From: Gemmatimonadota bacterium
GTDB taxonomy: Bacteria; Gemmatimonadota; Gemmatimonadetes; Longimicrobiales; RSA9
Reading direction: 5' to 3'
Length of the DNA stretch: 24,353 bases
Assembly (NCBI GenBank): GCA_040905425.1
Contig: JBBDRO010000014.1
Location: forward strand, 1-24,353
Shown here: positions 3,782-16,975 of the stretch, one piece after another
Numbering within the stretch: the first letter of the stretch is position 1
Layout of the letters: the number at the start of each line of letters is the position of its first letter
The notes under the pieces: model-generated
The model's input: the letters and a program-made list of their open reading frames with translations, nothing else
What the model was told of the DNA's origin: nothing
Database searches by the model: none
Position numbers and translations under genes: made by a program

Positions 3782-3853
3782 GGCCCCGTAGCCAAGTGGT
3801 AAGGCGAGGGTCTGCAAAACCCTTATGCGGCGGTTCGAATCCGCCCGGGGCCT
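3782..3853 (+). tRNA. tRNA-Cys (GCA), CCA not encoded
   Basis: Acceptor stem GGCCCCG/CGGGGCC, D arm GCCAAGTGGTAAGGC, anticodon arm AGGGT-CTGCAAA-ACCCT, T arm GGCGG-TTCGAAT-CCGCC, U73 discriminator typical of Cys; followed by CTA. Confidence 0.97.
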
Positions 3854-3976: not shown

Positions 3977-4315
3977 CTACAAGCCAAGCAAGGCGCACAC
4001 GGCGTACTCTACCTCCGCCATGGTCTTGGAATCGACGGTTCCCAGTTGTTGCTCAAACCGATCTTTCGAAAGGCTGCGGACATCCTCGCACTTGATGAAG
4101 CCCACCTTCTTCATGGCCGGCGGCTCCACCCGGATGTGTGAAACGATCCGCTTGTCCTTCGTGGTCATCGGCAACGCAACCACCAGGTCGGCTGGACCGT
4201 GGTTGAATTTATCCACGGAAAGGACCAGCGCCGGTCGCCTACCAGCTTGTTCCCGGCCCCTGATCGGGTTGAGGTCCACGAGCCATATTTCACCCCGGCT
4301 CGGGTGGCGCTTCAC
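3977..4315 (-). CDS. mazF: Type II toxin, MazF/PemK family endoribonuclease
   Basis: RGEIWLVDLNPIRGREQAGRRPALVLS...VVALPMTT...CEDVRSLSKDRF...LG. GTG start at 4315 overlaps the antitoxin TGA (GTGA). Confidence 0.93.
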   Translation of the reverse strand: MKRHPSRGEIWLVDLNPIRGREQAGRRPALVLSVDKFNHGPADLVVALPMTTKDKRIVSHIRVEPPAMKKVGFIKCEDVRSLSKDRFEQQLGTVDSKTMAEVEYAVCALLGL

Positions 4316-4554
4316 CCGTTGTCCTCGACGTGGCCGGCTGCGTCCCACTCAGCCCGCTCCGCTAGTTCCTCCTGCCAGGCATCGGGATCCGCCCGCAGGG
4401 CGGTGAAGCTATCGTTCAGCCGCTCAAGATATACGTCCCGCTCGAACGCACGAAGGGCCGTGTCGATCACCTCCGACTGTGTCTTCCCGGTCAGGTCGGC
4501 CAGGCGAGTCAAGCGCTTGTGGGTATCGGGGGAGATGCGAGCTTGTGTTGCCAT
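4312..4554 (-). CDS. Cognate antitoxin, ribbon-helix-helix N-terminus with acidic C-terminus
   Basis: 80 aa: TQARISPDTHKRLTRLADLTGKTQSEVIDTAL (RHH pattern), then WQEELAERAEWD. Directly upstream of and coupled to the toxin; SD GAGGT. Confidence 0.88.
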   Translation of the reverse strand: MATQARISPDTHKRLTRLADLTGKTQSEVIDTALRAFERDVYLERLNDSFTALRADPDAWQEELAERAEWDAAGHVEDNG

Positions 4555-7201: not shown

Positions 7202-7304
7202 AGCGGACGGGAACGGGAATTGCACCCGCCCCGCCACCGACGAGCGTCGGCCGCGGGCTCCCCGCGCGCCGGCATGCAGCGCACGAGTCGCGTCGGGAGT
7301 ACGC

Positions 7305-8018
7305 GTGAAAAACCCCTTTACAGCCAACGATCTGCCGGAAGCCTTGCGCCGCCGCCTCGACCTGGCCGTGGCCGTGGCGCAGGAACGCCTCCTTACCACC
7401 CACGTGGACCACGCGCTGAGGCTCATCCAGCTCGTGGGTGACCAGGTCCCCTTCGAAAGCGCGCTGGACATCTATACGCGCATGCTGCGCCTCTCGGATG
7501 ATGAGGCGCGCGTCATCACCACGCGGGCGCTGGCTATCCTGGGAGAGCAGGCCGCGGAATCCTCCGAATGGCCCGATCTGGTGGCGGAGGAGCGGGTGTC
7601 ACCGGACACCGAGCGGCGCTCCTTCATGAAGGGCATGCGCGAGCGGCTCCGGGGCCGGGTCAAGGAGGACCTGCGGCGCTATGTGGAGCTGTCGGCGGCC
7701 ACCACCGAGGTAGCCATCCTCGAGACGCACGTGCAGAACGCGCTGAACTTCGTGGAACTGCTCAAGGACGAGCAGCCACTGGGCGAAGCCGTGGAGATGT
7801 ACCTGGAGGCACTCGAGGTGCGCGACAGCGTGGGGGAGGTGACGTACTACATCACGCTCTCCCGCCTGGCCGACGAGTATCTGCCGAACCGTGACAGCCG
7901 GTCCCGCACACCCGACGTGACGGGCCAGCGCGACGAGCGGTCCGTGACGGCCCAGCGCGACGCGTCGTCCGTGGCGGGCCAGCGCGACGCGCCGGGCGCG
8001 CCGGTGGACACCGACTGA
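7305..8018 (+). CDS. Hypothetical helical protein with two internal ~68-aa repeats and a repetitive tail
   Basis: GTG at 7305 with GGGAG SD; G/C-ending codons as in neighbouring genes; internal duplication (see findings). Confidence 0.8.
7916..7991 (+). repeat. 27-nt tandem repeat, about 2.8 imperfect copies, in frame ([25 protein letters not shown])
   Basis: Units begin at 7916, 7943 and 7970 with consensus CGTG(A/G)CGG(G/C)CCAGCGCGACG. Confidence 0.9.
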
Positions 8019-8102: not shown

Positions 8103-9152
8103 TCAGACCCCCACGGAGCCCACCGCCACTGGAGGCGCCCCCACGGCGCGGCCGGCCGCCTCGGCAAAGCGCCGGGCGCCCTCCATCACCACCTCGAACT
8201 CCGCGAACGAGAGGGACTGCTCGCCGTCCGAGAGGGCGTCCTCGGGAGAGGGATGGACCTCCACCAGCAGCCCGTCCGCGCCGGCCGCGATGGCCGCCCA
8301 CGCCAGCGGCGCCACCAGGTCACGGCGGCCACCCGCGTGGCTGGGGTCCGCCACCACCGGCAGGTGGGTCTCCGCCTTGAGCACGGGAATGGCGGCCAGG
8401 TCGAAGGTGTTGCGGGTGGCGGTCTCGAAGGTGCGGATGCCACGCTCGCAGAGGATCACCTGCATGTTGCCCTGGCTCATGACGTACTCGGCTGCCAGCA
8501 GCAGGTCCTGGATGGTGGCGGACAGGCCGCGCTTCAGCAGCACGGGGCGGTGCACGCGGCCCACTTCCGAGAGCAGCGCGAAGTTCTGCATGTTGCGGGC
8601 GCCGATCTGCAGCATGTCCGCGTGCTCCGCCACCTGCTCCACCTGCCGCGTATCCATGACCTCGGTCACCACGGGCAGCCCCGTTTCGGCGCGCACCTCC
8701 GCCAGGATGTGCAGCGCCTCCTCCCCCAGCCCGCGGAAGGCGTAGGGCGAACTGCGCGGCTTGTAGGCGCCGCCGCGCAGCAGGGTGGCGCCCGCCGCTT
8801 TGACCGCCACCGCCGTCTCATGCAGCATGGCCGCGCTCTCCACCGAGCACGGCCCGGCCACCACGGCAATCTCCGGCCCGCCAATTTCCACGCTGCCCAC
8901 GCGGATGCGCGTGGGATCCGCCGCGAACTCGCGGGACGCCAGCTTGTAGGGCTTGAGCACGGGCATCACGCTGGCCACGCCCGGAAAGGCGTGCAGCGGC
9001 ACGTCGCGCAGGCGGTCCTCGTCGCCGATGCAGCCGATGATGGTGCGCACCTCGCCGCGGGACACGTGGGTACGCAGGCCTGCCGCCTCGATGCGCTCGC
9101 GGATGTGATCCAGCTCGTCGGCGGTGATGCCGGCGCGGGTGACGATGATCAT
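8103..9152 (-). CDS. aroF: DAHP synthase, type I-beta, with N-terminal ferredoxin-like/ACT regulatory domain
   Basis: Start ATG 9152 (MIIVTR..., SD GGAGAGG). Motifs [70 protein letters not shown]. Confidence 0.96.
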
Positions 9153-9185
9153 GCTGCCTCTCCAGGTGTGGGCTCGGGTACGGGC

Positions 9186-9214
9186 AAAAGAAAAGGCCCC
9201 CGGAGCGGGGGCCT
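9186..9214 (-). terminator. Intrinsic terminator (attenuator) in the aroF leader
   Basis: Minus-strand RNA AGGCCCCCG-CUC-CGGGGGCCU followed by UUUCUUUU, ending about 33 nt before the aroF ATG. Confidence 0.88.
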
Positions 9215-9243
9215 CGTGGACACGCGACGTACGGACTGTGCTG

Positions 9244-9330
9244 CTACACGCGCGCTCCGGCCCCCGGGGTGGTGCCCCGATAGGCGTAGCCAAAATAGCT
9301 GAAGCGGTACGTGTGGTGGCTGGGTCGCAT
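9244..9330 (-). CDS. Tyr/Phe-rich attenuator leader peptide [28 protein letters not shown] (28 aa)
   Basis: ATG 9330 to TAG 9244; 4 Tyr and 2 Phe codons within codons 8-17; lies between a promoter and a terminator upstream of DAHP synthase. Confidence 0.85.
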
Positions 9331-9336
9331 GAATGA

Positions 9337-9365
9337 AGGGTGACGGCGGGGCGCACGGCTGTCAA
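9337..9365 (-). promoter_or_regulatory. Putative promoter of the aroF leader (leaderless start on the leader-peptide ATG)
   Basis: Minus strand perfect TTGACA (9365-9360), 17 nt, CACCCT (9342-9337), 6 nt, ATG 9330. Confidence 0.65.
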
Positions 9366-9456
9366 GGCCGGTGCCATCGAAGGATGCCGCCGCCGGCCCC
9401 CGGAGGGGGTGCCGGCAGTGGCCGCGGGGACGTCGCTTGAAACGGACCCCGCGGCT

Positions 9457-9485
9457 TTGCGCCCGGCCGTAGGCCACCCTACATT
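9457..9485 (+). promoter_or_regulatory. Putative promoter of the tkt-rpiA-rpe operon
   Basis: TTGCGC (9457-9462), 17 nt, TACATT (9480-9485), 40 nt upstream of ATG 9526. Confidence 0.55.
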
Positions 9486-9525
9486 GCCGCGCTATTTCGA
9501 CCCCCGATCTCCGACCCCTGAAGGC

Positions 9526-10419
9526 ATGGCCAACACAGCACCCGGCACGAGCGGCGGCGCCGCGGACCTGGAGGCGCTCCGCGGGCGCGCCACGGTCCTG
9601 CGCCGCCACATACTTGAAATGCTCCACGAAGCGGCGAGCGGCCATCCCGGCGGCTCCCTGTCCGCCGTGGAGATCGTCACGGCACTCTACTTCGGCGGCA
9701 TCCTGCGCTACGACCCGGAGGATCCGGAACGCGTCGACCGGGACCGCTTCATCCTCTCCAAAGGGCACGGCGTACCCGTCCAGTACGCGGCCATGGCGGA
9801 GGCGGGCTACTTCCCGGTCAAGGAGCTGAAGAGCCTGCGCCGCATCGATTCCCGCCTACAGGGCCATCCCGTGCTGGGGAGCCTGCCGGGCATCGAGGCC
9901 TCCACGGGCTCGCTCGGCCAGGGGCTCTCCATCGGCGTGGGCACCGCGCTGGCGGCGCGGCTGGACGGCGCGGATTTCGACGTCTACGTGCTGCTGGGGG
10001 ACGGCGAGTGCCAGGAGGGGCAGGTGTGGGAGGCGGCCATGGCGGCGTCCCACATGAAGCTGACCAACCTGGTGGCGGTGGTGGACTACAACAAGTTCCA
10101 GCTCGACGGCGCCATCGAGGACATCATCGGGCTGGAGCCGCTGGCCGCCAAATGGCAGGCCATGGGCTGGACGGTGCGCGAGATCGACGGCCACGACATC
10201 GGGCAGGTCATGGAGGCCCTTGGGTGGGCGCGCGACCATCATGATGGTCCGGCCTGCGTGGTGGCCCACACGGTGAAGGGGAAGGGTGTGAGCTTCATGG
10301 AAGGGGAGAACGCCTATCACGGCGTAGCGCCCTCGGACGAGGAATTGCCCAGGGCGCTGGCCGAGCTGGACACCTACAAAAAGGCCCTGGCATCGGTGGA
10401 AGAGGAGGCCGGCGCATGA
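9526..10419 (+). CDS. tkt: Transketolase, N-terminal (TPP-binding) subunit
   Basis: SGHPGGSLS, DRDRFILSKGH, LQGHP, TGSLGQG, GDGECQEG..WEA, DGHD, TVKGKG. Start trimmed to ATG 9526. Confidence 0.95.
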   Translation: MANTAPGTSGGAADLEALRGRATVLRRHILEMLHEAASGHPGGSLSAVEIVTALYFGGILRYDPEDPERVDRDRFILSKGHGVPVQYAAMAEAGYFPVKELKSLRRIDSRLQGHPVLGSLPGIEASTGSLGQGLSIGVGTALAARLDGADFDVYVLLGDGECQEGQVWEAAMAASHMKLTNLVAVVDYNKFQLDGAIEDIIGLEPLAAKWQAMGWTVREIDGHDIGQVMEALGWARDHHDGPACVVAHTVKGKGVSFMEGENAYHGVAPSDEELPRALAELDTYKKALASVEEEAGA

Positions 10420-11417
10420 AGGACCTGTACCCCGGTTTCACGTTCGGCAAGGCCACGCGCGACGCGTACGGTGAGGCGCTCCGGGACCTGGGCCGCGACC
10501 ACCCGGAGATCGTGGTGCTGGACGCCGACCTGGCCAAGAGCACCAAGAGCTTCACCTTCGGCGCCGAGTTCCCCGAGCGCTTCTTCAACGTGGGGATCCA
10601 GGAAGCCAACATGGTGGGCATGGCGGGCGGGCTGGCGCACGCCGGCAAGGTGCCCTTCATCCACAGCTTTGCCTCCTTCGTCATCCTGAAGGGCTTCGAT
10701 CAGCTGCGCATGGCGGTGGCCTACCCGCACCTGAACGTGAAGGTGGTGGGCAGCCACGGCGGCATCTCGCTGGGTGAGGACGGCGCCAGCCAGCAGGCCA
10801 TCGAGGACGTGGCGCTGGCGTGCGGGCTGCCCGGCTTCGTGGTGTGCGTTCCCAGTGACGAGCACCAGATGCGGGCGGCCGTGCGGGCGGCCTTCGAACA
10901 CCACGGCCCCGTCTACATCCGCTCGGGGCGGCCCAAGGCGCCGCTCGTCTATGACGCTACGCCCGCCGACTTTGCTTTCGGCAAGGGCAAGCGCCTGCGG
11001 GAGGGCACGGATATCACGCTGATGGCAAACGGCCTGTTGGTGGCCGCCTGCCTGATCGCCGCGGAGCGGCTGGCCGAGGATGGCGTGCAAGCGCGCGTTG
11101 TGGACATGGCCACGGTGAAGCCGCTGGACGCGGAGGAGGTGCGCGCCGCCGCCGCCGAAACGGCCGGCATCGTGGTGGCCGAGGAGCACCTGGTCACCGG
11201 CGGGCTGGGCGCCATGGTGGCGCAGGCCGTGTGCCGCCTGCACCCGGCGCCCGTGGCGTTCGTGGGGCTGGAGGACACCTACGCCGAGAGCGGCGCGCCC
11301 GCGGCACTGCTGCGCAAGTACGGCCTCACCGCCGATGCCGTGCTGGCGGCGGCTGAGCGTCTCCTGGAGCGCCGCGGCAGCGCGGCTTCGACCGGCGCCG
11401 GCCGATCCTCCGCGTGA
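10416..11417 (+). CDS. tkt: Transketolase, C-terminal (pyrimidine-binding plus C-domain) subunit
   Basis: ATRDAYG, LDADLAKST, RFFNVGIQE, GEDGASQQ, GPVYIR, TVKPLD, EEHLVTGGLG; ATGA overlap with the upstream gene. Confidence 0.95.
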   Translation: MKDLYPGFTFGKATRDAYGEALRDLGRDHPEIVVLDADLAKSTKSFTFGAEFPERFFNVGIQEANMVGMAGGLAHAGKVPFIHSFASFVILKGFDQLRMAVAYPHLNVKVVGSHGGISLGEDGASQQAIEDVALACGLPGFVVCVPSDEHQMRAAVRAAFEHHGPVYIRSGRPKAPLVYDATPADFAFGKGKRLREGTDITLMANGLLVAACLIAAERLAEDGVQARVVDMATVKPLDAEEVRAAAAETAGIVVAEEHLVTGGLGAMVAQAVCRLHPAPVAFVGLEDTYAESGAPAALLRKYGLTADAVLAAAERLLERRGSAASTGAGRSSA

Positions 11418-12106
11418 GTGACGCGGAGCGGCTGAAGCGGCGCGCGGCGGAGCGTGCGGTGGGCTTCGTGGCCTCGGGGATGCGGCTCGGTCTGGGCACC
11501 GGCTCCACCGCCCGCCACGTCCTGGACGTGCTCGGCGAGAAGCTGGCCGCGGGTGAATTCACTGACCTCGTGGGTGTGCCCACCTCACGCGCCACCCAGG
11601 CGTACGCGGCCGAGCGTGGTATCCCGCTGAGCACGCTGGATGACACCCCCCGCCTGGACGTCTGCATCGACGGCGCCGACGAGTTCGATCCCGCGCTGGA
11701 CCTGATCAAGGGGCTGGGCGGGGCACTCCTGTGGGAGAAGATCGTGGCCAGCGCCGCGGAGCGCCTCGTGATCGTGGTGGACCAGGGCAAGCGGGTGGCG
11801 CGCCTGGGCACCAGGGCGCCGCTGCCGGTGGAGGTGATTCCCTTCGGCTGGAAGAGTCACCTGGATTTCTTTCGCGCACTGGGCGCCGAGCCCAAGCTTC
11901 GTCCAAGCGACGATGACGCCGCCTTCGTCACGGACGGCGGCCACTACATCGTGGACCTCACGTTTCCCGACGGCATTCCGGCTGCGCCGGAGCTGGAGCG
12001 GATGCTCCAGCAACGCACGGGGATCGTGGAGAGCGGCCTCTTCGTGGGCATGACCAGCGCGGTGGTGGTGGCCGCTCCGGAGGGCACGGAGGTGCTGCAA
12101 GCATGA
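11414..12106 (+). CDS. rpiA: Ribose-5-phosphate isomerase A
   Basis: GLGTGST, DGADE, IKGLGGALLWEKIVA, LPVEV, TDGGHYIVD, GIVESGLF. Confidence 0.97.
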   Translation: MSDAERLKRRAAERAVGFVASGMRLGLGTGSTARHVLDVLGEKLAAGEFTDLVGVPTSRATQAYAAERGIPLSTLDDTPRLDVCIDGADEFDPALDLIKGLGGALLWEKIVASAAERLVIVVDQGKRVARLGTRAPLPVEVIPFGWKSHLDFFRALGAEPKLRPSDDDAAFVTDGGHYIVDLTFPDGIPAAPELERMLQQRTGIVESGLFVGMTSAVVVAAPEGTEVLQA

Positions 12107-12768
12107 GCGTCAAGATTGCACCGTCCATCCTGTCGGCGGATTTCGCGCGCCTGGGTGAGGGCGTGGCGGCCGCCGAGGCCGCCGGCGCGGAGTGGATCCA
12201 CGTGGACTGCATGGATGGCCACTTCGTGCCCAACCTGACCATCGGACCGCCGGTGGTGAAGGCGCTGCGCCGCGTTACCGAGCTGCCGCTGGACGTGCAC
12301 CTCATGATCGAGCGGCCGGACGCCCTGCTGGAGGCGTTCGCTGACGCGGGCGCGGACATCCTCACCGTGCACCAGGAGGCCACCGTTCATCTGCACCGCA
12401 CGCTGCAGCGCATCCGGGACCTGGGCATGAAGGCGGGCGTGTCCATCAATCCAGGCACACCGGTGGGCGCCCTGGATGAGGTGCTGCCGTACGTGGACCT
12501 GGTCCTGGTGATGAGCGTCAATCCCGGCTTCGGCGGACAGCGCTTCATCCCCACCAGCACCGCCAAGGTGGCCGCCCTGCGGCAGGCGCTCGAAGCGCGC
12601 GGTATCGACGGCGTCGAGCTCGAAGTGGACGGCGGTATTGCCCCGGACACCGCGCCCGGGGTGGTGGCCGCCGGCGCCACGGCGCTGGTGGCGGGCGCGG
12701 CCGTCTTCGGCGGCTCCGGTGACGTGGCCGCCAACCTGGCCGCGCTGCGGGCGGCGGTGGGGCGTTGA
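12103..12768 (+). CDS. rpe: Ribulose-phosphate 3-epimerase
   Basis: IAPSILSADF, HVDCMDGHFVPNLT, DVHLMI, MSVNPGFGGQ, EVDGGI. Confidence 0.97.
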   Translation: MSVKIAPSILSADFARLGEGVAAAEAAGAEWIHVDCMDGHFVPNLTIGPPVVKALRRVTELPLDVHLMIERPDALLEAFADAGADILTVHQEATVHLHRTLQRIRDLGMKAGVSINPGTPVGALDEVLPYVDLVLVMSVNPGFGGQRFIPTSTAKVAALRQALEARGIDGVELEVDGGIAPDTAPGVVAAGATALVAGAAVFGGSGDVAANLAALRAAVGR

Positions 12769-12793
12769 GGCGCCCGGCCACGGCCTCTAGATT
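12765..12793 (+). promoter_or_regulatory. Putative promoter of the tRNA-Leu-rnz-tyrA-aroA-cmk unit
   Basis: TTGAGG (12765-12770, includes the rpe TGA), 17 nt, TAGATT (12788-12793), 10 nt before the tRNA. Confidence 0.55.
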
Positions 12794-12803
12794 CAGCGGG
12801 TCG

Positions 12804-12887
12804 GCCGGGATGGCGGAATGGGCATACGCAGCCGACTTAAAATCGGCGGGCCGCGAGGCCATGTGGGTTCGAGTCCCACTCCCGGCA
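12804..12887 (+). tRNA. tRNA-Leu (TAA), CCA not encoded
   Basis: Acceptor stem GCCGGGA/TCCCGGC with A73; anticodon arm GCCGA-CTTAAAA-TCGGC; long variable arm GGCC-GCGA-GGCC; T arm GTGGG-TTCGAGT-CCCAC; followed by TTG. Confidence 0.97.
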
Positions 12888-12900
12888 TTGCTCGAGGGAC

Positions 12901-13227
12901 ATGAACAGCATTCTCCTCCTCCTCTCGGTGGCCGGTGCGGTGGCCGTACTGGCGCGTGCGGTCCGGGCCGGGGTGCGTCTCCTGACCCGCGGGGCGGATT
13001 CCTTCCTGGCCGGCGAGGTGGCCGCTCAGCGGGCGCTGCGCGGCGACCTGACCGGCGTGTCCGACGCCGATCAGGCCCGGCGGGACGCCCGCGTGCGGCG
13101 GCGCGGCGCCGTGGCCGAGCTGGCGGTCTGGATCGCGTTACTCGCGGCGCCACCACTGACGCCCTGGCCGGAGGGCATCTACGCCGCCTACGCGCTGCTC
13201 TGGCTGTTTCCGCGGCGGCGGCGCTGA
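12901..13227 (+). CDS. Small hypothetical membrane protein (108 aa)
   Basis: SD GAGGGA; hydrophobic N-terminus and C-terminal hydrophobic segments ending RRRR; fills the gap between the tRNA and rnz. Confidence 0.7.
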   Translation: MNSILLLLSVAGAVAVLARAVRAGVRLLTRGADSFLAGEVAAQRALRGDLTGVSDADQARRDARVRRRGAVAELAVWIALLAAPPLTPWPEGIYAAYALLWLFPRRRR

Positions 13228-13228
13228 C

Positions 13229-14155
13229 GTGATCCGCCTCACCTTTCTGGGCACCTCCGCCAGCCGCCCCACCGTAGGCCGCAACGTGAGCGCCGTGGCG
13301 CTGCAGCGGGAGGGAGAGACCATGCTCTTCGACTGTGGCGAGGGCACGCAGCGGCAGATGATGCGCTTCGGGACCGGCTTTGCCGTGGCGGACATCTTTT
13401 TCTCTCATCTGCACGCCGACCACTTTCTGGGCGTCATCGGCCTGCTGCGCACCATGGGGCTGCAGGGCAGGGAGGAGGACGTTCGGCTGTGGGCTCCCAC
13501 GGGCACGCGCCGGATTCTCGAGGAAGCCGTGCACCTGGGCGTGGAGCGGGTCCCCTTCCAGGTGGAGATCCGTGAACTCGCTTCCGGTGAGGTGGTGGAG
13601 CGTGACGGCTACCGTATCGAGGCGTTCGCCACACAGCACGGGCGCGGCACGCAATCGCGCGGCTACGCGCTGGTAGAGGATGACCGCCTGGGCCGGTTCG
13701 ATCCGGACCGGGCCCGGGCGCTGGGCATTCCCGAAGGACCACTCTTCGGCCGCTTGCACCGCGGCCAGGCCGTGGAGGTGGACGGCCGCCTCATCCAGCC
13801 GGAGGAACTGGTGGGCGCGCCGCGCCCCGGCCGGCGTGTGGTCTATACCGGTGACACGCGGCCGTGCCGGCAGACCGCCGCGGCGGCCCGGGCGGCCGAC
13901 CTGCTCATTCACGACGCCACCTTCGCCGACGACGAGGCCGAGCGCGCCCGCGGGACGGGGCACTCCACCGCACGGGAGGCGGCCGAACTGGCGGCCGCGT
14001 GCGGCGCGCGGCGCCTCGTGCTGACGCATATTTCCTCGCGTTACGCGGAGGATCCGCGCATGCTCGAGCGTGAGGCGCGTGAGCACTTTCCCGGCGCGGT
14101 CGTGGCGCACGACGGGCTCCTGGTGGAGGTACCGTATCCCGGGGAGGAAGCGTGA
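13229..14155 (+). CDS. rnz: Ribonuclease Z
   Basis: FLGTS...P...RN, FDCGEGTQRQ, SHLHADHFLG (HxHxDH), exosite GIPEGPLFGRL, YTGDTRP, HDATF, GHST, LTHISSRY. Confidence 0.96.
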   Translation: MIRLTFLGTSASRPTVGRNVSAVALQREGETMLFDCGEGTQRQMMRFGTGFAVADIFFSHLHADHFLGVIGLLRTMGLQGREEDVRLWAPTGTRRILEEAVHLGVERVPFQVEIRELASGEVVERDGYRIEAFATQHGRGTQSRGYALVEDDRLGRFDPDRARALGIPEGPLFGRLHRGQAVEVDGRLIQPEELVGAPRPGRRVVYTGDTRPCRQTAAAARAADLLIHDATFADDEAERARGTGHSTAREAAELAAACGARRLVLTHISSRYAEDPRMLEREAREHFPGAVVAHDGLLVEVPYPGEEA

Positions 14156-15027
14156 CGGAGATCGAGTTCAGCGGAGGAGAGAGCGGGGGGGCGCCCCGCC
14201 GGGTGGCCATCGTGGGGCTCGGCCTCATGGGCGGCTCCCTGGCGCGGGCGCTCCGTGCATCCGCGGCGCCGCCGCACGTGGTCGGCTGGAGCTACACGGC
14301 GGCGGAAGGTGAGGCCGCCCTCGCGGCGGGCGTCGTGGAGCGCATTGCCACCGGCGTGGACGATGCCGTGGACGGGGCGGATCTGGTGGTGCTGGCCACG
14401 CCCGTGGAGAGCATCGTGGCCATGCTCGGCCGGTTCACCTCCGTGTTGGCGCGCGTACCGGCCGTGACCGACCTGGCCAGCGTGAAGGGCCCCGTCATGG
14501 CGGCGGCGCGGGCCGCGGGGCTGACCGATCGTTTCGTGGGCGGCCACCCGCTGGCGGGGCGCCACGAGCGGGGCTTTGCCGCCTCGCGGGCGGAGCTCTA
14601 TCAGGATGCGCTCGTCTACCTGGTGCAGGAGGCCGAGTACGCCACCCAGGCCATGCGCACCGTGGCGGCCATGTGGCGCTCTGTGGGCGCTCGGCCACGC
14701 GTGGTGGATGCCGCGGCGCACGACACCCTGCTGGCCTGGACCAGCCACCTGCCGCAAGCCGTGGCCTTCGCGCTGGGTGCCGCCCTGTCGGCGGCCGACG
14801 TGCGCGTGGACGAGCTCGGCCCCGGCGGGCTGGACACCACCCGCCTGGCGGCCAGTCCCTCGCAGCTTTGGGCGGACATCTTCCTGCACAATACGGCGGC
14901 GCTGGCCGAACCGCTGAAGCGCCTGCGGGAGCACATCGCGTTGATCGAACAGGCCCTGGTGGAGGAGGACGTGGCCACGCTCCTGGCGCTCTTCGAGGCC
15001 TCCTCGCGCTGGCGGGACACACCGTGA
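14152..15027 (+). CDS. tyrA: Prephenate/arogenate dehydrogenase (TyrA family, no C-terminal ACT domain)
   Basis: GLGLMGGSLA Rossmann motif, DLASVK, GGHPLAG, HD...A.TSHLP, DTTRLAAS...W.DIF..N. Confidence 0.92.
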   Translation: MTEIEFSGGESGGAPRRVAIVGLGLMGGSLARALRASAAPPHVVGWSYTAAEGEAALAAGVVERIATGVDDAVDGADLVVLATPVESIVAMLGRFTSVLARVPAVTDLASVKGPVMAAARAAGLTDRFVGGHPLAGRHERGFAASRAELYQDALVYLVQEAEYATQAMRTVAAMWRSVGARPRVVDAAAHDTLLAWTSHLPQAVAFALGAALSAADVRVDELGPGGLDTTRLAASPSQLWADIFLHNTAALAEPLKRLREHIALIEQALVEEDVATLLALFEASSRWRDTP

Positions 15028-16310
15028 GCCGCAGCGCGTCGCCGCGTGTGGTGCGTGTACCCGGGGATAAGTCCATAAGCCACCGTGCGCTGCTCCTGGC
15101 CGCGCTGGCGGAGGGGCGGAGCAGCGTGCGTGGCATCCTCACCGGTCAGGATCTGCAGGCCACGGCGGCGGTGCTGCGGCGGCTCGGTGTGGACGTGCCG
15201 GAGCTGGCGGCGGAGCTGGCGTTCGAGGGCGTGGGCGCGGGCGGGCTGCGGGCCCCCGAGCTGCCGCTCGACTGCGGCAACAGCGGCACCACGGCCAGGC
15301 TGCTGCTGGGCATCCTGGCGGGATGCGCCTTCCGGGCCGAGGTGCGGGGAGACGCGTCGCTGTCCATGCGGCCGATGGGCCGCGTCACCGAGCCGCTCAC
15401 CCGCATGGGGGCGCGCTTCGAAGCGCTGGACGAGCCCGGCTGCCTGCCGCTCGCCGTCACCGGCGGCCCGCTCTCACGCCTGGTGTGGGACAGCCCCCAC
15501 GCCAGCGCCCAGGTGAAGAGCGCCCTGCTCCTGGCCGCCCACGTGGGGGGGACGGAGGTGCGCGTCACCGAGCCGCTCCTGTCGCGTGATCACACGGAAC
15601 GCATGCTCGCCGCCGCCGGCGTGCCGGTGCAGCGCGGCACGGCCGAGGACGGCCGCCCCTGGGTGGCGCTGGCGGGCGGCGCCCCGCTCGGAGCGCGGGC
15701 GTACGTGGTTCCCGCCGACCCTTCGGCGGCCGCCTTCCCGCTGGCGCTGGCGTTGCTCGGTGGCACGGGGCCGGTGGAGATTCCGGGTGTGTGCGTAAAT
15801 CCCACGCGCGCCGGCTTCCTGGCCGTGCTCGAGCGCATGGGAGCCGTGGTGGAGGTGGTCGATCGGCGCGAGGAATCCGGCGAACCGGTGGCCACGCTCC
15901 GTGCCGAGCCGGGTTCACTGCGCGCCACCGAGGTGGCGGCCGAGGAACTGCCTGCGCTCATCGACGAGGTGCCGGTGCTGGCCATCCTGGCCGCACGCGC
16001 GGAGGGTGAGACCCGCATTACGGGCGCGGCCGAACTGCGCGTCAAGGAGACGGACCGGTTGGCCGCCCTTGCGGCCAACCTGCGCGCGGTGGGTGTGGCG
16101 GCCGAGGAGCTGCCCGACGGCCTGGTGGTGCAGGGCACGGACGCGCCCCTGCGCGGCCGGGTGCAGGCGCGCGGCGACCACCGCATTGCCATGGCCTTCG
16201 GCGTGCTCGGCGCCACGCCGGGCGCGGACATCCAGGTGGATGATCCGGCTGTGGCGGGCGTGAGCTTTCCGGGCTTCTGGGAGTTGCTGGCTGAACTCGG
16301 GCGCCGGTGA
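15024..16310 (+). CDS. aroA: EPSP synthase
   Basis: GTG 15024 overlaps the tyrA stop. PGDKSISHRAL, DCGNSGTTARL, GDASLSMRPMGR, ASAQVKSA, SRDHTERML, IDEVP, ELRVKETDR, DHRIAM. Confidence 0.97.
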   Translation: MSRSASPRVVRVPGDKSISHRALLLAALAEGRSSVRGILTGQDLQATAAVLRRLGVDVPELAAELAFEGVGAGGLRAPELPLDCGNSGTTARLLLGILAGCAFRAEVRGDASLSMRPMGRVTEPLTRMGARFEALDEPGCLPLAVTGGPLSRLVWDSPHASAQVKSALLLAAHVGGTEVRVTEPLLSRDHTERMLAAAGVPVQRGTAEDGRPWVALAGGAPLGARAYVVPADPSAAAFPLALALLGGTGPVEIPGVCVNPTRAGFLAVLERMGAVVEVVDRREESGEPVATLRAEPGSLRATEVAAEELPALIDEVPVLAILAARAEGETRITGAAELRVKETDRLAALAANLRAVGVAAEELPDGLVVQGTDAPLRGRVQARGDHRIAMAFGVLGATPGADIQVDDPAVAGVSFPGFWELLAELGRR

Positions 16311-16975
16311 TCATCACCATCGACGGTCCGGCGGGATCGGGGAAGAGCACGACGGCCCGCGCGGTGGCCACGCGGCTGGGATTCAGGCACCTGGATTCGG
16401 GCGCCTTCTATCGCGCGCTCACACTGGCGGCCCTGCGCGCCGGTCTGCCGCCGGATTCGTGGGACGCGCTGTCGCCCGCCGCGGTGGAGGCGCTGACCGT
16501 GGAGGCGGTGCCGGTGGCGGCGGGCTTCGCCATGCGGATCGACGATGAGGAGGTCGGGGAGGAACTGCGCTCATCGGAGGTAACCGCACGGGTCTCCGCG
16601 ATGGCGCAGGTGCCCGCCGTGCGCAGCTGGCTGCTGCGTCACCTGCGCGCGGCCGCCCGGCATGGCAGCCTGGTCACCGACGGCCGTGACATGGGCACCG
16701 TGGTCTTCCCTGCAGCGGAGCTCAAGGTCTTCCTGGTGGCCGATCCGGCCGTACGGGCACTGCGCCGCCTCCGCCAGGAGGGCAGCGCGGAGCCGGACGG
16801 CGCCGCGGTGGCCGCCGAGGAGGCACGCCTGCGCGCACGCGACCGGGTGGACAGCGAACGGTCCGTTGCCCCCCTGCGGCGTGCGCCGGATGCCGTGGAA
16901 CTGGACACCACCCACCTGGATTTCACGGAGCAGGTGGAGGGCATCGTGCGCCTGGCGAGGGCGCGGGGCGCGTAG
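16307..16975 (+). CDS. cmk: Cytidylate kinase
   Basis: IDGPAGSGKST, LDSGAFYRA, DGRDMGTVVFP.A..KVFL, RD..DS.R..APL. Confidence 0.97.
   Translation: MIITIDGPAGSGKSTTARAVATRLGFRHLDSGAFYRALTLAALRAGLPPDSWDALSPAAVEALTVEAVPVAAGFAMRIDDEEVGEELRSSEVTARVSAMAQVPAVRSWLLRHLRAAARHGSLVTDGRDMGTVVFPAAELKVFLVADPAVRALRRLRQEGSAEPDGAAVAAEEARLRARDRVDSERSVAPLRRAPDAVELDTTHLDFTEQVEGIVRLARARGA

Follow-up and report, generated by a model that had tools for sequence, protein, structure and literature searches.

The aroF gene, on the minus strand of a 24,353-nucleotide (nt) stretch of Gemmatimonadota DNA (assembly GCA_040905425.1, contig JBBDRO010000014.1; the whole stretch is hereafter called the window), is very probably under the control of a transcription attenuator of the classical ribosome-mediated type, acting on an mRNA that is itself probably leaderless. 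The gene encodes a 3-deoxy-D-arabinoheptulosonate 7-phosphate (DAHP) synthase, and between its promoter and its start codon lie a short upstream open reading frame (uORF) with Tyr and Phe codons and an intrinsic terminator (Table 1). A preliminary description of this DNA had proposed such an attenuator, sensing the charging of aromatic tRNAs. The comparative evidence strongly supports that proposal, and the positions it gave for the promoter (TTGACA-17-CACCCT), the uORF, the Tyr and Phe codons with no Trp, the terminator, the repeats, the Shine-Dalgarno (SD) sequence and the aroF ATG all check. The terminator search found one hairpin (stem 9215-9193, U tract to 9186) against 0.4 +/- 0.7 in shuffled sequence. 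As a lone sequence the leader is unremarkable and folds no better than shuffles (z = -1.56). Its non-chance status therefore rests on conservation.

Orthologues were drawn from 60 relatives and the 80 closest GTDB loci, the latter labelled Gemmatimonadota, a group within Gemmatimonadota, or 'uncultured bacterium'. Requiring at least 58% identity in the segment used and removing duplicates and loci with less than 200 nt upstream left 116, and 23 more distant aroF paralogues (22 usable; L048 assigned to them by hand) formed a control set. An amino-acid-blind filter, which asked for an ATG 33-39 nt after a TTG hexamer and a 15-45-codon open reading frame (ORF) that stops ahead of a terminator at -10 kcal/mol or lower, was passed by 86/116 orthologues versus 0/22 paralogues, so that conservation of uORF and terminator is borne out. 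Inspection by eye of the 30 orthologues that failed the filter revealed 10 complete leaders, 1 leader before an inserted phhA gene, 2 leaders without a start codon, 4 degenerate leaders and 13 loci with none; a hairpin followed by a U tract is present in 100/116. Four loci (L099, L102, L108 and L140) have shortened aroF leaders that keep promoter and terminator, either through real loss or through assembly collapse; L102 looks like a deletion between repeated segments, those here numbered 2 and 4, and its uORF now enters the hairpin. At a further locus (L026, G046:C16) the leader has ACG in place of its ATG, and the promoter is preceded by another copy of the aroF start; the arrangement may reflect a duplication in decay or a mis-assembly.

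The uORFs that passed the filter are rich in aromatic codons. Tyr, Phe and Trp make up 10.9, 5.7 and 3.3% of their residues, whereas the five alternative frames of this DNA contain 1.6, 1.4 and 0.9%, a 4-7-fold enrichment over 86 leaders that include one wrong ORF pick (L017). Tyr occurs in 85/86 uORFs, Phe in 62/86, Trp in 55/86 and all three in 37/86. Codon choice is likewise skewed, with TAT accounting for 119/245 Tyr codons and TTT for 68/128 Phe codons in leaders, versus 11% and 10% in the aroF genes.

The position of the uORF relative to its promoter points to an unusual start. The TTG-to-ATG distance is 35-36 nt in 67/86 leaders and about 36 nt in the window; the 33-39-nt range is a filter setting, and the sharp peak within it was not imposed. 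The -10 region of the 86 leaders shows A at 44-47% at -12/-11 and T at 53-62% at -8/-7, and an SD-like motif precedes 2/86 uORFs versus 61/86 aroF starts. Together, these features place the uORF ATG at about +1, and the aroF transcript is therefore probably leaderless, starting at or beside the A of that ATG; the preliminary description had overlooked both the lack of an SD and this probable start. A consensus promoter scan of the window did not list the uORF promoter because its -10 element is weak. We also observed that trpE of the window's own genome (L163; G000:C111, ~40560) appears leaderless, with TTGACA 38 nt before its ATG and no attenuator.

We number four RNA segments, such that pairing 1:2 forms a protector hairpin, 2:3 the antiterminator and 3:4 the terminator. 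Segment 2 belongs to a 9-nt repeat (9267-9259 and 9203-9195) that places a copy of the terminator 3' arm within the leader. Across leaders, the best complement of the terminator 5' arm starts a median 13 nt past the first base of the final control codon (interquartile range 11-14). Segment 2 begins at a median distance of 13-14 nt from that codon, a spacing at which it would start just beyond the reach of a stalled ribosome. Between +6 and +30 after the last control codon, 67/86 leaders can form an uninterrupted run of at least 7 pairs with the terminator arm, versus 1% for three other search intervals and 16% for arms of a different core, and a looser antiterminator test was passed by 72/86 leaders versus 12/100 terminators of the window's genome. 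The proposal that the antiterminator is the leader copy of the terminator 3' arm, the first of two helices put forward in the preliminary description, is thus upheld by conservation and by the covariation described below. The second helix (helix B, 9260-9253 with 9207-9200) is rejected as a conserved element: of the leaders that we folded, only 1/79 has a comparable helix, its probability is 0 with the ribosome at the control codons, and it appears (0.87) only with the ribosome further on and segment 4 incomplete. The 7-bp protector suggested earlier, GCUACGC with GUGUAGC (9290-9284 with 9249-9243), had a probability of 0.0 in three folds and is rejected as well; the predicted protector is 9285-9275 with 9269-9260, where GCCU/UCGGGG pairs with CCCCGG/GGGC at probabilities of 0.93-0.95.

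Sequence comparison indicates that the 2:3 antiterminator covaries. On a structure-blind alignment (A2) of 51 leaders, hand-chosen to avoid length variants, the 8-bp helix 2:3 shows 92.9% pairing and has both partners changed at 4/8 pairs, and slid registers give 25-50%. Its percent paired, its cells changed on both sides and its covariation score were each reached by 0/500 shuffles. The terminator helix 3:4 is 95.5% paired, and 8/12 pairs are compensatory. Two MAFFT alignments with register slips between core types were left out of the pair counts, and covariation of 1:2 was left uncounted because loop lengths shift its register. Strongly supported branches of the aroF tree (a quick tree, in which the placement of the frameshifted L046 is meaningless) force at least 2 switches of core type for type A, at least 5 for type B and at least 2 for type C.

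Folding was undertaken on the 79 leaders with at least 6 antiterminator pairs, the stalled ribosome being represented by a mask that reaches +12 from the last control codon. In naked RNA before segment 3 is made, segment 2 is held in the upstream hairpin with P > 0.5 in 73/79 leaders. With the ribosome stalled and segment 4 not yet made, 2:3 forms in 65/79 (P > 0.5), and with a ribosome on the stop codon the 3:4 terminator forms in 79/79 (P > 0.5). The comparison of folds with and without masked segments, which the preliminary description had suggested as a check, therefore has two outcomes: the switch is predicted for RNA that ends before segment 4, and the terminator wins on the full RNA.

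Several results weigh against attenuation as described. On the full RNA at equilibrium with a stalled ribosome, 2:3 exceeds P 0.5 in only 3/79 leaders (in the window, 0.30 versus 0.65 for the terminator), and the gap between terminator and antiterminator has a median of 9 kcal/mol, 4.5 in the window. When naked RNA is folded up to and including segment 3, the equilibrium favours 2:3 over 1:2 in 34/79 leaders, among them the window's (0.82). A leader's own arm pairs better than all other arms in only 57/86, and 45/86 do better than codon shuffles at p <= 0.05, the window's leader with p 0.02. The count of 2:3 pairs with two-sided change was reached by 112/500 shuffles; moreover, the rows of alignment A2 are selected and kin within it are not independent, and core types cluster on the aroF tree, so that changed cells overstate the number of events. 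The window's -10 element (CACCCT) is weak, and among the 116 orthologues are the 13 without a leader, the 4 with degenerate leaders and the 2 without a start codon. Since the terminator wins at equilibrium, read-through would need kinetic control. The same imbalance holds for Escherichia coli trp, where the antiterminator is the weaker of the two helices.

Leaders of similar build before other biosynthetic genes provided a further line of evidence. A scan of the window's genome for promoter-spaced uORFs with terminators gave 4 matches among 61 short ORFs, including the aroF leader and one before hisG. The latter (L162:107-249; G000:C52) comprises a His-rich 24-codon uORF, an antiterminator and a terminator ahead of hisG and the his operon, with aroF-like geometry, a type-A-like core and an apparently leaderless start; leaders occur at 19/25 hisG loci with enough upstream DNA (His 21%). 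At pheA, 8/30 loci have leaders (Phe 14.9%, Tyr 1.9%). At phhA, which encodes phenylalanine hydroxylase, a family search found leaders at 6/30 loci (Tyr 11.9%, Phe 0.0%), the zero being notable relative to aroF leaders and not relative to background, and no terminator at 23/30. Tyr-rich, Phe-free leaders stand before the hydroxylase genes of L246, L249, L250, L251, L253, L254, L257 and L083. A covariance model of the aroF leader also matched leaders before phhA, pheA, tyrA, a LeuA-family gene, leuC, cysH and a gene for a pyridoxal 5'-phosphate (PLP) enzyme, and the codons of most such leaders match the product of the downstream pathway. We noted Leu/Ile codons before the LeuA-family gene (L216), Leu before leuC (L222), Cys before cysH (L224), Trp before the TrpB-like PLP enzyme (L244; uORF read by eye) and Tyr before tyrA (L201). 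Matches at E <= 0.001 occurred in 50/121 genomes, with 29 candidates scored per genome and terminator-only matches included, a figure that is not a prevalence. For trpE, leaders were found at 5/29 loci, all outside the window's class; none was found in 18/18 loci within that class, and no attenuator was seen upstream of trpE or pheA in the window's genome. In the trpE leaders of one family (L304-L311, f10) His codons follow the Trp codons, with His at 9.5% in five automated picks that include one f11 locus. Short of experiments, no stronger argument for function is at hand than this apparent match between codons and genes.

These observations bear on three other explanations. The first, which we regard as very improbable, is a nascent-peptide arrest of the TnaC kind, in which a free aromatic amino acid or other ligand would stall the ribosome through the peptide and set the same RNA switch. 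Leader length is kept near 27 codons, tails are Arg-rich (R 17.2%), and many leaders have RYYW- or YYYAT-like stretches, all of which would suit a conserved peptide; Arg, however, is equally common in other frames (14.8%), and segment 2 falls in varied frames relative to the last control codon (42/9/28), which argues that conservation there is at the RNA level. The cognate codon runs also vary with the downstream gene, and a stall at the control codons would switch a biosynthetic gene on, a response suited to shortage rather than to excess. Slightly less credible still is an essentially constitutive terminator that merely dampens aroF by fixed leakage, with uORF and repeat as by-products. In nearly all leaders the terminator does exceed the antiterminator in stability, and the leader is lost or degraded in 17/116 orthologues, but a constitutive terminator would not account for leaders enriched in aromatic codons and biased to rare ones, for the constant spacing, for segments 2, 3 and 4 covarying three ways or for the matching of codons to genes. 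Equally implausible is a switch acting mainly on aroF translation or through Rho-dependent termination, for which one could cite the poor U tracts of a few leaders (L008, L084, L112) and one paper's term for Corynebacterium glutamicum aroR, in the passage seen, of a translational regulatory leader (PMC7356990); against it stand the U tract after the hairpin in 100/116 orthologues, the at least 23 nt between hairpin end and aroF SD in the window, and the covariation of 3:4.

For the attenuator that we favour, the amino acid sensed would depend on which codons can open the protector when a ribosome stalls there. In the window, the protector survives a modelled stall at Y8 or at F10 (0.81-0.83), and a stall at Y12 opens it only at the longest footprint. 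A stall at Y17 opens it (0-0.27), and the values for Y15 (0.27-0.64) and F13 (0.27-0.81) depend on the footprint. Of the 79 leaders, 77 have Tyr within the zone 9-23 nt before segment 2, 44 have Phe there and 34 have Trp. With Tyr15, Tyr17 and perhaps Phe13 placed to act, Tyr is therefore the likeliest main signal, and Phe, and in relatives Trp, may be partial inputs. Gating by both tRNA-Tyr and tRNA-Phe, as envisaged in the preliminary description, would not be equal in these models. Codon content need not equal response: the F-Y-F leader of C. glutamicum is reported, in the part of the source seen, to answer to Phe and not to Tyr (PMC11802643).

The mechanism that we infer from these elements, from start site and translation to stalling, termination and dominant amino acid, would run as follows. 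RNA polymerase would start on the A of the uORF ATG or right beside it, and translation would be initiated without an SD. Hairpin 1:2 is predicted to form first and to hold segment 2. When charged aromatic tRNAs are plentiful, the ribosome would reach the stop codon and cover segment 2, 3:4 would form, and transcription would end near 9186. When Tyr-tRNA is short (less certainly Phe-tRNA, and Trp-tRNA in many relatives), the ribosome would stall at the last control codons, cover segment 1 and free segment 2; the inner helix and 2:3 would then form before segment 4 is made, under kinetic control, and polymerase would enter aroF. DAHP synthases of the Thermotoga maritima type are feedback-inhibited by Tyr and Phe. 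Entry into the shikimate pathway in Gemmatimonadota is thus probably set by tRNA charging on leaderless messages, atop the presumed feedback inhibition of the enzyme. The leader would give this widespread phylum, most of it uncultured, a cis-regulatory RNA that is in no catalogue and a small ORF that had gone unannotated.

Table 1. Features of the aroF leader and gene, in window coordinates
Feature	Position	Strand	Basis and remarks
-35 element TTGACA	9360..9365	minus	Sequence; TTG 33-39 nt before uORF ATG across relatives
-10 element CACCCT, with A in position -11 and T in position -7	9337..9342	minus	17-nt spacer after -35; ATG 6 nt later
Putative leader uORF, 28 codons, without SD	9244..9330	minus	ATG at 9330, TAG ends at 9244
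Candidate control codons Y8 F10 Y12 F13 Y15 Y17	9280..9309	minus	Y15, Y17, F13 best placed; no Trp
Segment 1, 5' arm of predicted protector hairpin 1:2	9275..9285	minus	Pairs with 9269-9260, P 0.93-0.95
Segment 2, 5' strand of antiterminator, copy of segment 4	9259..9266	minus	Pairing and covariation
Inner helix around stop codon (9258-9247 with 9231-9218)	9218..9258	minus	Predicted by folding; would draw segment 3 close to segment 2
Segment 3, terminator 5' arm and antiterminator 3' strand, core 9213-9206	9206..9215	minus	Terminator search, covariation
Segment 4, terminator 3' arm	9193..9202	minus	Terminator search, covariation
U tract of intrinsic terminator	9186..9194	minus	Sequence
SD-like GGAGAGG of aroF	9157..9163	minus	23 nt past U tract; hairpin does not overlap
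aroF, type I-beta DAHP synthase, 349 aa, N-terminal ferredoxin-like regulatory domain	8103..9152	minus	PRK08673/PF18152/PF00793/PDB 1RZM

The likeness among the sister leaders raises the question of their origin. We lean slightly towards common descent, with one ancestral leaderless scaffold copied before aroF, phhA and hisG and retuned only by swaps of control codons; copies before pheA, tyrA, leuA/cimA, leuC, cysH and trpB may perhaps belong to it too. A type-A aroF profile stripped of its control codons found the his leader as its top match in the window's genome (E 0.0084), and the reciprocal his profile gave 20 matches at E <= 1 in 593 kb, all of them aroF-operon leaders. The phhA and aroF type-A consensus sequences are nearly identical, and the type-A core occurs in 1/100 terminators of the window's genome, the his one. 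The gene order at L083, where a leader precedes a phhA-aroF operon, and at L072, where a leader and a short phhA-like remnant precede aroF, suggests a route by which one leader could pass between genes. On the other side, GC-rich hairpins with U tracts can converge, the E-values are modest, and the window's own leader is not a full-length match of the type-A profile.

If a shared scaffold is correct, it would carry His codons for hisG, Tyr without Phe for the Phe-consuming hydroxylase, Phe for pheA and, ahead of aroF, a Tyr/Phe/Trp mix. Among the genes examined, that would leave the aroF leader as the one transcriptional sensor of Trp in the class, given that none of the 18 class-level trpE loci showed an attenuator. 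Some 100 aroF leaders with varied Tyr/Phe/Trp mixes on a fixed geometry, together with the sister leaders on hisG, phhA and pheA, form a natural series in which one can test how a single leader balances the inputs of several amino acids and how attenuators change their specificity during evolution. Two further elements of the window's genome came to light. One locus (L165:423-497; G000:C81) matches the SAM_alpha riboswitch at 41.3 bits versus a cut-off of 36; after it, at ~549-704, a Cys/Met-rich uORF with a terminator precedes a RimK-like ATP-grasp gene. At G000:C26:24544 (+), a methionine-synthase-like gene is preceded by a 26-codon ORF at promoter spacing and a terminator, which are probably part of a riboswitch leader.

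By sequence, the aroF product is a type I-beta DAHP synthase with an N-terminal regulatory domain, of the T. maritima type. It scores 489.7 bits against PRK08673 (cut-off 335), with PF18152 over residues 1-67 followed by the PF00793 barrel, and residues 1-336 align to PDB 1RZM (E 8.5e-110). No second full-length copy was found in the window's genome. Within the window aroF is apparently monocistronic, flanked by a divergent split transketolase gene and a convergent ORF without assigned family. That ORF (7284-8015 (+), ~240 aa) has no match in NCBIfam or Pfam and lies beside aroF in 8 distinct genomes of the window's family. The transketolase gene opens a divergent cluster, tktN-tktC-rpiA-rpe-tRNA-rnz-tyrA-aroA-cmk (9340-16975), whose pentose-phosphate genes supply erythrose 4-phosphate and which is oriented away from aroF; transketolase adjoins aroF in only 4 distinct genomes among those fetched. 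A 174-aa ORF (9768-9244), already dismissed as spurious in the preliminary description, overlaps the divergent transketolase gene and is rejected, and a 424-aa extension of aroF from 9377 was not taken as a gene because aroF homology begins at 9152. Elsewhere in the window, 3977-4554 (-) holds what looks, from its translation, like a PemK/MazF-like toxin-antitoxin pair beside a tRNA gene (3782-3853).

Searches for known families and for earlier reports place the leader among other attenuators. Against Rfam, the best match of the aroF leader was Phe_leader (RF01859), with 19.7 bits versus a cut-off of 55 and on the terminator side only; at gathering score, the window and 16 related loci gave only tRNAs and one SAM (S-adenosylmethionine) riboswitch. 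With no family at cut-off, we rejected a riboswitch, T-box or known Rfam leader for the aroF element. Titles and the beginnings of abstracts of openly accessible papers yielded nothing pertinent on attenuators or leader peptides in Gemmatimonads, and on a phenylalanine-hydroxylase attenuator no more than a review; the main texts of PMC2965389 and PMC4833913 mention neither aroF nor Gemmatimonads.

Leader-peptide attenuation is an established mechanism, and aroF attenuators are already known in other organisms, so the surprise is modest. The C. glutamicum AroF is a type I-alpha enzyme. The novelty claimed earlier for a type I-beta aroF leader was overrated, with the C. glutamicum leader described, an Acholeplasma leader predicted and a Thermus attenuator listed. 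Like the enterobacterial trpL, pheL and hisL leaders, the Gemmatimonadota leader has four segments with control codons just before segment 1; unlike them, it is apparently leaderless and matches no Rfam family. According to the passages seen, the C. glutamicum aroR-aroF attenuator was tested experimentally, with a Phe/Tyr leader peptide before a Tyr/Phe-inhibited DAHP synthase and stalling that raises transcription (PMC4046766, PMC11802643, PMC7356990). By those descriptions the two share a Phe/Tyr uORF upstream of a DAHP synthase gene and differ in phylum and in codons, three (F-Y-F) in aroR as against four Tyr and two Phe here, with Trp in many relatives.

Other parallels are likewise drawn from the parts of the sources seen. 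Acholeplasma uORFC-13-1 (Brewer 2021) is a predicted uORF with an intrinsic terminator found exclusively upstream of aroF, with a ribosome-binding site, a Phe-coding U run and 24 representatives (PMC8632094). It resembles our leader in pairing a uORF with a terminator before aroF; as described, it differs from the apparently leaderless, Tyr-led Gemmatimonadota leader with its covarying 2:3 helix. The trpL1, leuL and ilvL leaders of Streptomyces lividans have an ORF from the first base of the transcript, then hairpins and a U tract (PMC8079986), as we propose here, but serve other amino acids and genes, none in Table 4 of that paper lying before a DAHP synthase gene. Attenuation has also been proposed before DAHP synthase genes, one of them type I-beta, as putative attenuators ahead of aroA-Ibeta > tyrA in Thermus thermophilus (PMC1173090 Table 7) and of aroF-tyrA in Vibrio and Shewanella (PMC1173090 Table 7; PMC2659441 Table 3); in the passages seen these are predictions of terminators or structures only, with no leader peptide. 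Set beside these systems, what this analysis adds is an aroF leader outside Rfam and, before hisG, phhA and pheA, an RNA scaffold of similar build with codons that match the product.

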